Below are positions 34,273-37,034 of a stretch of DNA of 64,000 nucleotides, one piece after another. The DNA is from an uncultured Ignavibacteriales bacterium. GTDB lineage: Bacteria > Zixibacteria > MSB-5A5 > GN15 > FEB-12. Position numbers and translations under genes: made by a program. Each line of letters opens with the position of its first letter. Positions within the stretch are counted from its first letter, which is position 1. The notes beneath the pieces are model-generated. The model worked only from the letters and a program-made list of their open reading frames with translations. It was not told the DNA's origin and made no database searches. Location of the stretch: contig CAZNAI010000004.1 in NCBI GenBank assembly GCA_964571235.1, positions 233,836-297,835 on the forward strand. Direction: 5' to 3'.

Positions 34273-34869
34273 CTAATATTCCTGTCGCCCTTCAAGGGCT
34301 CGCGTGAGTGTCACCGAATCGGCATATTCAAGATCGGAGCCAACCGGTAGCCCGCGCGCGATGCGCGTCACTTTCAGGCCGAGCGGTTTGAGAAGTCGCG
34401 ACAAGTACGACGCAGTCGCTTCCCCTTCGACATTGGGATTAGTCGCCAGAATAATTTCTGTCACTTCCGATTCGAGCCGATGCAATAGCTCCTTGATCTT
34501 CAGATCATCGGGGCCGATGCCATCAAGCGGCGACAGGCGTCCGCCGAGCACATGAAACAGGCCGTTAAATCCCTCGGCTTTTTCCAGCGCCGCGACATCC
34601 ATCGCCTGTTCGACCACACAAATCACATCGCGACGTCTTCGCGGATCGGTGCAGATATTACAGGGATCAGTTTCGGAGATATTGTTACAGACAGTGCAGA
34701 ATCCGACTTTCGATTTTACTTCAATAATCGTTTCGGCCAGTTCCACTGCTTCGTTCTTGGGCATCTTGAGGATATGAAATGCAAGCCGGGCGGCAGTTTT
34801 GCGACCGATCCCCGGAAGTTTGGCCAGCGAGTTGACCAGACGTTCGACTGTATTTGCAGAAGTAAACAC
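34273..34869 (-). CDS. recR: Recombination mediator RecR
   Basis: [14 protein letters not shown]4 zinc finger, Toprim [14 protein letters not shown]. Confidence 0.98.
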
Positions 34870-34875
34870 AATAAC

Positions 34876-35202
34876 CTAAAAGGGGAGACCCAGCCCCGGT
34901 ATATTCAGTCCGCCGGTGATCGCCGACATTTGCTCGGCTTGAATTGCTTGCGATTTTTCCTGTGCTTGTTTCACCGCCGCCAGCACCAGGTCCTGTAGCA
35001 TTTCGACATCGTCTTTGTTGACCACTTCGGGGTCGATCGTAATCCCGATAACTTCATTCTTGCCGTTGGCAACTACTTTGACCACGCCACCGCCGGCTGA
35101 TCCTTCAACTGTCATCTCTTCAAGCTGTTTCTGGATCTCAGCCATTTTCTGTTGCATCTGCTGAACCTGGCGCATCATATCGCCCAAGCCACCTTTACCC
35201 AT
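34876..35202 (-). CDS. ybaB: YbaB/EbfC nucleoid-associated protein
   Basis: GSAGGGVVKV, DVEMLQDLVLAA; canonical dnaX-ybaB-recR order. Confidence 0.96.
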   Translation of the reverse strand: MGKGGLGDMMRQVQQMQQKMAEIQKQLEEMTVEGSAGGGVVKVVANGKNEVIGITIDPEVVNKDDVEMLQDLVLAAVKQAQEKSQAIQAEQMSAITGGLNIPGLGLPF

Positions 35203-36907
35203 CGTTTTGCTCCTTTATTCCGGGTTGTCGAGACCCGCTGTCATGCTTTTTTACACCAATAATCTCACCATCGACCAAATCCATGAGCCTCTTCAGCCGA
35301 GGCGATTTGTCGACCAGTTGCCGTGCGTCGGTCGACGACACCGTGTTGGTCGCCTGCTCCGGACGAGCATAATCTTTTTCCATATCGACATCGAATCGCA
35401 CGGTCAGGCCGGCTCTAAAATGCTCCCGCAATGTAGTCAAAATCAAGTTCATATTATCCGGCTTGCCGACCAATTGCCGCGAAACCTCGCCCGATTTGAG
35501 GAAGACCAATTGAATCTGATTGTCATTCATCCCGCGCAATTCGGCCATCTTGACCTGCGAGGCCAGCATCTGGCTCTGACTCCGCAAATGCACCAGGTAG
35601 GTTTCCCATCCGGCCTTCACTTGCGCAAAATTAATCGTTCTCAGCGGAGCGAGTGGTTCGGGAGCTGGTTGATTGGCTACCGGTCGACCCGGCTGGAAAC
35701 TATCGTTTTTTTTTTGAGTCGAGTTGCCGAACAGCGATGGTTCACCCGATCCGGCGGTCGGCGCGACTTGAATATTTCCACTCTTAATAAGCGCGATGAC
35801 ATCTTCAAGGCGCACCGTCGATTCCATCTCGGCCATTTTCACCGCGGCAACATCCAGCACCAGCCGATGATCCAGCCCTGATTTGAGATCGGTGACAATT
35901 TCGCCAGCCATTCGCAATAGCCGTAAAAGATCACCCAGCTCAAAGTTCTCCGATTGCGTCTTGAACTCGGCGAATTCCGAACTGCTTAGTTGCACCAAAG
36001 TCTCTGCCCCCGGAGTCGAGCGGATAATCATCAGTACGCGCAGATGTTCGATCAATTCGGCGACAAAGTCAGCCGGATCGACACCTGAATCTACTACCTG
36101 GCGGATCAACTCAAGAGTCTTAGCTCTTTCGGAGGCGGCGATGGCGTCGACAAATGCCACCAGCAATTGCCGGTCAACCAGTCGCAACGCATTGACTACA
36201 TCGCCCGCCGAAATCGTATCCCCGCAGAATGCCGCGATCTGATCCAACAGCGAAAGCGCGTCGCGCACCCCTCCTTCGGCTTTGCGGGCGATCAAGGCCA
36301 GCGCGTCATCATCGATCTTGAGATTTTCCTTTTGCGCAATGTTTTTCAAATGCGCCGCCAGATCGCTGACCGATACACGACGGAAGTCATACCGCTGTGT
36401 TCGCGAAAGAATTGTCTCAGGCACCTTCAGCGGTTCGGTGGTCGCAAAAATAAACATGACATGCGCCGGCGGTTCTTCCAGCGTTTTCAATAGCGCGTCA
36501 AACGCCGAGCCCGACAAACGGTGAACTTCGTCGATTATGTAGATTCGCTTCTTACCGCGAGTCGGCAGGTACCGGACATTCTCGCGCAGAGCACGGATAT
36601 CATCCACACCGGTATTAGAGGCGGCGTCGACTTCAAGCACATCAAGCGAGGCTCCCGATGTGATTTCCTGGCAGGCCGGGCACTCGCCGCAGGGAGTCGG
36701 TGTCGGGCCGTTCTGGCAATTGACCGCTTTGGCCAAAATTCGCGCGACCGTCGTCTTGCCGGTCCCACGCGGGCCGCAAAAGAGGTACCCCGAGGCAATT
36801 CGGTCATTAGTCAACGCATTGCGCAACGTTCGCGTGACGTGCTCTTGCGCGACCACATCCTCGAATGTCTGCGGGCGGTACTTTCGGGCAAAAACGACAT
36901 AGCTCAT
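35195..36907 (-). CDS. dnaX: DNA polymerase III subunits gamma/tau
   Basis: MSYVVFARKYRPQTF, GPRGTGKTT, IDEVHRLS, FNA-like FDALLKTLEEPP, TILSRTQ. Confidence 0.98.
   Translation of the reverse strand: MSYVVFARKYRPQTFEDVVAQEHVTRTLRNALTNDRIASGYLFCGPRGTGKTTVARILAKAVNCQNGPTPTPCGECPACQEITSGASLDVLEVDAASNTGVDDIRALRENVRYLPTRGKKRIYIIDEVHRLSGSAFDALLKTLEEPPAHVMFIFATTEPLKVPETILSRTQRYDFRRVSVSDLAAHLKNIAQKENLKIDDDALALIARKAEGGVRDALSLLDQIAAFCGDTISAGDVVNALRLVDRQLLVAFVDAIAASERAKTLELIRQVVDSGVDPADFVAELIEHLRVLMIIRSTPGAETLVQLSSSEFAEFKTQSENFELGDLLRLLRMAGEIVTDLKSGLDHRLVLDVAAVKMAEMESTVRLEDVIALIKSGNIQVAPTAGSGEPSLFGNSTQKKNDSFQPGRPVANQPAPEPLAPLRTINFAQVKAGWETYLVHLRSQSQMLASQVKMAELRGMNDNQIQLVFLKSGEVSRQLVGKPDNMNLILTTLREHFRAGLTVRFDVDMEKDYARPEQATNTVSSTDARQLVDKSPRLKRLMDLVDGEIIGVKKHDSGSRQPGIKEQNDG
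35706..35715 (-). other. A10 slippery run in dnaX (candidate gamma-generating recoding site)
   Basis: CAA AAA AAA AAC at codons about 398-401; both shifted frames reach TAG within 2 or 9 codons. Confidence 0.6.
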
Positions 36908-37034
36908 GGCCCAACAATATAGAGTCAACCGGTCGCCGGCGGAATCATTATTTGGCAGGTACGGTCTTGACATTCACCCCCCATTTCGCGTCTGTAGGAA
37001 AGAGTACCAAAAGACCAGAGGATCCGCACACTAC

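Follow-up and report, generated by a model that had tools for sequence, protein, structure and literature searches.

An A10 run in the dnaX gene of Zixibacteria as a conserved candidate recoding site for the tau and gamma subunits

Slippage in the dnaX gene of Thermus was reportedly described by Larsen et al. in PNAS in 2000 and by Yurieva et al. in 1997. In Thermus thermophilus, transcriptional slippage on an A9 run within dnaX, with tau and gamma made at a ratio of 1:1, is presented as experimentally proven (PMC1088944, PMC5009743). In the dnaX gene of Escherichia coli, gamma results from a -1 programmed ribosomal frameshift at A_AAA_AAG, for which PMC3711429 (legend of Fig. 1) and PMC5009743 state that an upstream Shine–Dalgarno (SD) sequence and a downstream stem-loop are both needed to reach a frameshifting efficiency of about 50%. 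A further layout has been reported by Antonov et al. (2013; PMC3711429), who described 17 dnaX genes made of two open reading frames (ORFs) in 12 genera. Nine of these genes carry A10 runs, namely those of Chlorobium luteolum, C. tepidum, Prosthecochloris, Pelodictyon, Flavobacterium johnsoniae, F. psychrophilum, Cytophaga hutchinsonii, Capnocytophaga, and Coraliomargarita (PMC3711429, Suppl. Fig. S3). Here we describe the dnaX gene of an uncultured bacterium of the Zixibacteria, contained in a stretch of 64,000 nucleotides (contig CAZNAI010000004.1, positions 233,836 to 297,835 of the forward strand; hereafter, the window), which has a run of ten A's in the linker that follows the clamp-loader domains. 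Most of the genera with A10 runs mentioned above belong, like Zixibacteria, to the FCB superphylum. The evidence presented below supports the A10 run as a conserved programmed recoding site, at which both tau and gamma would be made from a single gene.

On the minus strand of the window, the run is preceded by the codons GGC AAC TCG ACT and followed by GAT AGT TTC CAG CCG GGT CGA CCG GTA GCC (coordinates are given in Table 1). It is exactly A10 and lies in the tau frame, its first codon being number 420 of the mechanically called ORF and number 398 when counted from the conserved methionine M23. An initial annotation of this DNA had placed an A10 run at dnaX codons 398–401 (M23 numbering), in the linker, and had proposed stops in both shifted frames with products of about 402–409 amino acids; all of this is borne out by the sequence. 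Insertion of one A leads to a protein of 424 codons (402 from M23) ending in …QKKKR, and removal of one A to a protein of 431 codons (409 from M23) ending in …QKKTIVSSRVDR, with out-of-frame stops close to the run in both non-zero frames. The -1-frame TAG would terminate gamma if its transcript carried one extra A or if the ribosome shifted by -1, whereas translation of transcripts that lack one A or have gained two would end at the +1-frame TAG. The C-terminal peptides predicted for gamma are …SLFGNSTQKKKR and …QKKTIVSSRVDR. Since the run is located between domain III and the C-terminal domain, a change of frame at this point takes away what is specific to tau, and what remains is a clamp-loader subunit similar to gamma.

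Homopolymers of this length are rare in this DNA. The A10 run is the only one of nine or more nucleotides in the window, where 0.06 A10 or T10 runs are expected under a model of independent and identically distributed letters. When the window and 32 Zixibacteria-type dnaX loci are pooled, the resulting 218 kb contain 109, 29, and 10 A/T runs of six, seven, and eight nucleotides, respectively, and every one of the 24 runs of nine or more is at this dnaX site (2 A9, 21 A10, and 1 A11). The dearth of other runs of at least nine nucleotides in these 218 kb agrees with the counter-selection that has been described for long A/T runs in bacterial coding DNA in general (Baranov et al., 2005; PMC1088944); 9A and 9T runs are counter-selected because both RNA polymerase and DNA polymerase slip on them (PMC1088944).

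Conservation of the run and of nearby out-of-frame stops was the test that the initial annotation had named, and the site has passed it. Genome and metagenome contigs supplied part of the dnaX DNA of relatives, and the rest was retrieved through exact look-up of the protein (loci are denoted here by L numbers); lineages were counted as distinct when mutually under 85% identity in domains I–III. An A9–A11 run is kept at the equivalent linker position in 17 Zixibacteria-type dnaX lineages, whose proteins share 52–93% overall identity with that of the window; in these relatives it is found about 347 residues after Walker A and 3–5 codons after a (D/S/N)LF motif. The residues that flank the run vary among lineages (Q, E, S, D, or G before it and K, N, or S after it), the two or three lysine codons at the site are always AAA, and the flanking codons add further A's in every lineage. 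Elsewhere in these dnaX genes, AAA accounts for 53% of the lysine codons (387 AAA vs. 344 AAG). A -1-frame stop (TGA, TAG, or TAA) is located exactly one sense codon past the run in 12 of the 17 lineages and within three codons of it in 16, the background for such a stop within two codons being 5–10% per position. These stops are made by codon pairs that are not homologous to each other: CGA TAG, GAG TGA, GGA TGA, TCA TAA, GAA TGA, GAG TAG, GGC TGA, and AAG TGA. The +1-frame stop, usually 5–35 nt past the run, is less fixed than the -1 stop, and only in L169 is the nearest stop in the +1 frame. In addition, the A10 run occurs in two codon phases: it reads xAA AAA AAA AAx in most lineages but AAA AAA AAA AGY in L167 and L168. 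The run ends in AAC or AAT in the window, L081, L007/8, and L169. Of the 120 best protein homologues, about half have no KK motif. Among the orthologues that have them, run and stops are conserved beyond what the protein would constrain; the length of the run and the -1 stop are under strong purifying selection across Zixibacteria.

The site shares several traits with that of Thermus. In both cases a single ORF encodes tau, a sense-strand A-run follows the clamp-loader domains, each of the two shifted frames has a stop nearby, ribosomal stimulators are not needed, and the short product is (or, in Zixibacteria, would be) gamma. The two sites differ in the length of the run (A10 here, A9 in Thermus) and in its position, about 70% through the gene here and at 'seven-eighths' of it in Thermus (PMC1088944). 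They also differ in the -1 stop, which in Zixibacteria (FCB group) is fixed exactly one sense codon past the run, and in that slippage is proven for Thermus, whereas here it is predicted from the sequence. The likeness to the two-ORF genes of Antonov et al. lies in the A10 run followed by TGA or TAA within a few codons, for which transcriptional realignment is the predicted mechanism. However, the roles of the frames are exchanged: in those genes the zero frame gives gamma and tau needs the slip, whereas in the window the zero frame gives tau and gamma would need it. A zero frame that ends just after the run is absent from the window and was found only in L014, which has A11. Single-ORF cases escape the screens for disrupted ORFs, because only interrupted zero frames are visible in such screens (PMC4066793).

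With E. coli, the window shares the gene, the location in the linker after domain III, and the dnaX–ybaB–recR neighbourhood. In L003, L006, and L168 the similarity extends to a Lys-Lys-Ser-Glu context with one sense codon and then TGA in the -1 frame: the frameshift site of E. coli K-12 reads GCA AAA AAG AGT GAA, those of L003 and L006 read GAA AAA AAA AAG AGT GAG/GAC, and that of L168 reads AAA AAA AAA AGT GAG CCG. In contrast to E. coli, there are ten A's instead of six A's plus G (with AAC at the end of the run in the window), neither an SD-like stimulator nor a conserved hairpin is present, and it is the length of the run, not its phase, that is conserved. In appearance, the site in Zixibacteria is the classic dnaX site with its poly-A stretch extended. 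A literature search combining Zixibacteria with frameshifting or recoding returned nothing relevant. This is a new lineage for a known kind of dnaX recoding and not a new mechanism; the novelty suggested by the initial annotation holds in that the Zixibacteria instance appears to be unreported, but not for the kind of site, given that A10 runs had been predicted in Chlorobi, Bacteroidetes, and Coraliomargarita and that the A9 of Thermus is proven.

That gamma is produced by slippage or frameshifting at the A10 run in Zixibacteria, as initially proposed, is supported by the conservation of run and stops in 17 lineages. Regarding the route, we consider it rather likely that gamma is made mainly by slippage of RNA polymerase at the run, as in Thermus; what we infer is that slippage occurs, that it takes place chiefly during transcription, how efficient it is, and what gamma does. 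According to this model, transcripts with the ten templated A's (or with 10 plus or minus 3n) would give full-length tau of 570 amino acids, in which a disordered linker joins the clamp-loader module to a C-terminal domain that would bind polymerase and helicase. RNA polymerase would slip on the dT10:rA10 hybrid, and a sizeable fraction of the transcripts would carry one extra A; those with two extra A's or one missing A would be fewer. Normal translation of the shifted transcripts would stop after one codon in the -1 frame (…QKKKR) or after nine in the +1 frame (…QKKTIVSSRVDR), and the product would be a gamma-like protein of about 402–409 amino acids without the C-terminal domain of tau. Unstimulated -1 ribosomal slippage on the same run would yield an identical protein and may contribute.

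Several features of the run point to transcription. Its conserved length of 9–10 nt exceeds the 7 nt that a ribosomal heptamer needs, and it falls in the range in which bacterial RNA polymerases slip efficiently (PMC1088944, PMC5009743). The A10 run is kept in two codon phases, and therefore selection would act on its length, not on a phased X_XXY_YYZ motif. The stops in both shifted frames found in most lineages, as in Thermus, also count for the transcriptional route, as does the close +1-frame stop of L169. Furthermore, the run of the window and of several relatives ends in AAC or AAT, and the heptamers A_AAA_AAC and A_AAA_AAA that this gives are reported to shift far less readily in E. coli than A_AAA_AAG (PMC5009743). 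The lack of an SD-like element and of a conserved downstream hairpin, described below, points in the same direction.

Other observations weigh against slippage of RNA polymerase as the main source of gamma. Many relatives have A_AAA_AAG, the slippery heptamer of E. coli, in phase, so a ribosomal -1 shift is fully possible in them, and conservation is far stronger for the -1 stop than for the +1 stop; both observations are compatible with a -1 event of either kind. Besides, the run is absent from L002, L016, L085, L161–L163, L165, L166, and L171, all of them Zixibacteria-type, and since several clades do without it, the run is not indispensable. The A11 of L014, which is described below, could be a homopolymer assembly error. 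Finally, the metatranscriptome contigs that map on dnaX, which came from the only two runs, both small, that hold the gene (X21 and X22; 151-nt contigs covering 35287–35678), end at 35678 (X22) and 35631 (X21), the nearest end being 28 nt short of the A10 run. Low coverage (depth 2–4) is the most likely reason why they end before it. These contigs show that the tau-specific part of dnaX is transcribed. RNA runs were also sought for the relatives L010 and L081, and none were found.

The alternative that would make gamma purely by -1 programmed ribosomal frameshifting on the run (at A_AAA_AAA, A_AAA_AAC, or A_AAA_AAG), from a homogeneous mRNA, is in our opinion unlikely; transcription and translation are not told apart by the sequence, because both routes lead to the same protein. 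An in-phase slippery heptamer X_XXY_YYZ does exist, the window having both A_AAA_AAA and A_AAA_AAC, and most relatives read GAA AAA AAA AAG, in which A_AAA_AAG is correctly phased. One sense codon further on, the -1 stop reproduces the layout of E. coli K-12, as illustrated above by L003 and L006, and its much tighter conservation relative to the +1 stop is also in favour of this route. However, seven nucleotides would be enough for the ribosome, yet A9–A10 is conserved, and in two codon phases; in the window, L081, L007/8, and L169 the run ends in AAC or AAT, and for E. coli a much lower tendency to shift is reported for A_AAA_AAC and A_AAA_AAA than for A_AAA_AAG (PMC5009743). In L169, moreover, the stop close to the run is a +1-frame one. 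The two stimulators of the E. coli type, an upstream SD-like element and a stable downstream stem-loop, are both lacking. The 50 nt upstream and downstream of the run were folded in 19 sequences, and SD-like motifs were scanned in them: GGAG, GAGG, or AGGA were not found 8–14 nt upstream of the run in the window, nor in 18 of the 19 relatives, and the downstream 50-nt folds had z-scores of -1.6 to +1.7, except for that of L004 (-3.45), with no structure conserved across lineages.

The initial annotation had also pointed to a short CCGG-GTCGA-CCGG hairpin downstream of the run. The inverted repeat is present, but it is not a conserved or unusually stable element: the 50 nt downstream of the run in the window fold with -8.8 kcal/mol (z = +0.44 against shuffles), and the CCGG pairing is broken in L001, which is 93% identical, and in L081. 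The hairpin was rejected as a stimulator because it is no stabler than shuffled sequences and is lost in L001.

The partial proteolysis of tau is a known third route to gamma, described in Caulobacter (bioRxiv 10.1101/2022.11.10.516041). That gamma is also, or instead, made in this way in Zixibacteria, the run being incidental, is very unlikely, because the conservation of run and stops at the nucleotide level would be left unexplained, although proteolysis might apply to those clades that lack any run, such as L165 and L166. We give even less credit to an explanation at the DNA level, according to which the run is a hypermutable contingency tract for phase variation between tau and gamma, or else an artefact of homopolymer sequencing or assembly. 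Homopolymers are indeed hot spots for replication slippage, and the metagenome-assembled genome (MAG) of L014 carries A11, against the A10 of its close relative L005. Nevertheless, eight independent metagenome assemblies, from this species and from strains more than 10% diverged, all read A10 without any indel (this evidence consists of contigs, in which minor variants are hidden), and 21 of the 24 sites in different genomes are exactly A10; on/off switching is moreover implausible because the tau product of dnaX is essential. As improbable is the idea that the run is functionless, a lysine-rich patch that happens to use AAA in an unconstrained linker: the linker is disordered and its composition can drift, and some clades have no run, but this rival is effectively refuted by the conservation data, in view of the 53% usage of AAA elsewhere, the A's that flanking codons supply in all lineages, the maintenance of the -1 stop by codon pairs that are not homologous, and the restriction of all 24 A/T runs of nine or more in 218 kb to the dnaX site, such runs being counter-selected (PMC1088944).

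The identification of the gene as a dnaX orthologue with clamp-loader domains I–III and a tau-specific C-terminal region is based on several lines of evidence. The mechanical ORF that contains dnaX (35195..36973, minus strand; 592 codons) extends 22 codons beyond the conserved methionine, and its protein passes the NCBIfam equivalog model PRK05563 with 500 bits (cutoff, 400). The full-length NCBIfam gamma/tau models cover ORF residues 23–576, and structures of E. coli gamma/tau in the PDB match from residue 23 (E = 1e-79). Because models and structures align only from this residue, the start is most likely M23 (MSYVVFARKYRPQTF...), and the upstream extension (36908–36973, minus strand) is probably not translated. 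The Pfam families DNA_pol3_delta2, DNAX_ATPase_lid, and DNA_pol3_gamma3 span ORF residues 43–388, and the clamp-loader module that they define would be common to tau and to the predicted gamma. In an AlphaFold2 (AF2) model of DnaX, built with 50 homologues in the alignment (mean pLDDT, 78), this module has a pLDDT of 80–92 through residue 376 (M23 numbering, as in the rest of this paragraph). Beyond the linker, which contains both the (D/S/N)LF motif and, in its middle, the A10 run, the model shows a folded alpha/beta domain (427–507) and then terminal helices. When the C-terminal domain was modelled alone, the pLDDT exceeded 90 in the alpha/beta core. Foldseek gave weak but coherent matches of this domain to the C-terminal domain of E. 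coli tau (5fku_E, 5fkv_E, and 2aya; E = 0.01–0.07), and DnaA domain I and DciA appeared in the same weak range; Pfam returned nothing meaningful for the C-terminal 162 amino acids. The weak fold match of the model, together with the full-length NCBIfam alignment, suggests that the C-terminal region corresponds to tau domain V. This region is conserved throughout the Zixibacteria.

Table 1. Features at and around the dnaX recoding site, in positions of the window.
Feature	Position	Strand	Basis or comment
A10 run, candidate slippage site (CAA AAA AAA AAC = Q398 K K N401)	35706..35715	minus	sequence, conservation
-1-frame TAG, one sense codon (CGA) past the run	35700..35702	minus	conserved position in relatives
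+1-frame TAG, 9 sense codons past the run	35677..35679	minus	ends ORF 35677..35808(-)
CCGG-GTCGA-CCGG inverted repeat, about 13 nt past the run	35680..35692	minus	probably not functional
dnaX coding sequence (tau, 570 aa from M23)	35195..36907	minus	NCBIfam PRK05563, gamma/tau models, E. coli structures
Clamp-loader module: AAA+ domains I–II, lid, domain III	35780..36907	minus	Pfam and AF2
Disordered linker, residues 377–418 (M23 numbering)	35654..35779	minus	AF2 pLDDT below 50
Tau-specific C-terminal folded domain, residues 427–544 (M23 numbering)	35276..35629	minus	AF2, Foldseek
ybaB/ebfC, directly downstream of dnaX	34876..35202	minus	TIGR00103, E = 3e-26
recR	34273..34869	minus	TIGR00615, E = 1e-79

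The order dnaX–ybaB–recR is also found in E. coli K-12, and the nearest relatives are Candidatus Zixiibacteriota MAGs from activated sludge, bioreactors, soils, and sediments. The (D/S/N)LF motif (35716–35745, minus strand; residues about 388–397 from M23) sits in an otherwise variable disordered linker and would occur in both tau and gamma; its F393 is at least 90% conserved (alignment A1). The motif resembles the C-terminal half of a beta-clamp-binding motif (QL[SD]LF).

With a site of this kind, a whole candidate phylum would join the organisms in which one gene yields both tau and gamma; to our knowledge, Zixibacteria have no cultured representative. It would also support the view that having both tau and gamma is under selection across bacteria, whatever the route by which they are made (bioRxiv 10.1101/2022.11.10.516041). 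With respect to annotation, Zixibacteria MAGs should gain a gamma product at the dnaX run, and where an A11 or A9 run splits dnaX, the gene should be neither labelled a pseudogene nor 'corrected.' The turnover of recoding devices could also be studied by natural comparison within the phylum, whose closely related genes have A10, A11, T7 with a +1 stop, or no run at all. The understanding of the slippage mechanism itself is unchanged.

Other designs have been observed among the relatives. In L014 (DAOWIM010000268.1, MAG contig cov_73), the run is A11 at 2808–2818, the close relative L005 having A10 at 2709–2718; the zero frame ends in …EKKKG, and the intact C-terminus of tau continues in the +1 frame for 487 nt. 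Since L014 is assembled with A11, its tau frame needs slippage. This could be the reversed layout of the Chlorobi/Bacteroidetes type or the assembly error mentioned above; the A11, if real, would be viable only where slippage is efficient, and to that extent it counts for slippage.

A different arrangement has been found in a sister clade without an A-run (L002, L085, L161, L162, L163, and L171; DFF clade), in which all six loci read GAT TTT TTT C(G/C)G. This T7 site occupies the position of DLF, about 345 codons after Walker A, and TTT is only 38% of the phenylalanine codons in these genes. A +1-frame TGA or TAA is located 5–6 codons past T7, where CT(G/A) precedes either AGA or AAA; all four sequences with arginine there have AGA (4/4), though it is only 6% of the arginine codons. 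A -1 heptamer site was rejected for this clade, as the nearby stop is in the +1 frame. The DFF site may be a second, different recoding device, which would act either by the deletion of one U in transcription or by a +1 ribosomal shift from UUU_C to UUC before CGG or CCG. We know of no +1-frame route described for dnaX. It is conceivable, although we lean against it, that the device for making gamma has been swapped repeatedly within the phylum, with at least three designs (A10 with a -1 stop, A11 with tau made by the slip, and T7 with a +1 stop). In the clades of L165 ('RDLFRSKRH') and L166 ('PPELFTPP'), the equivalent position has neither a homopolymer nor near out-of-frame stops, and gamma may be absent or made in another way.

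Poly-A runs in dnaX were also observed outside Zixibacteria. In Desulfobacterales (L017, L020, L021, L023, L027, L028, L030, L031, L034, L038, and L039), a conserved A10 (A9–A11) is located about 40 codons before the C-terminus and about 477 after Walker A, a position that differs from that of the Zixibacteria site, and the distances to out-of-frame stops are variable. Slippage at this run would cost tau no more than its conserved C-terminal helices. Finally, the dnaX gene of a Bacteroidota MAG (L019/L089) is a single ORF with an A9 run (CTG AAA AAA AAA CTC GGT GAC) about 332 codons after Walker A and a -1 TGA two codons past it, which suggests that the single-ORF poly-A design also occurs in Bacteroidota.

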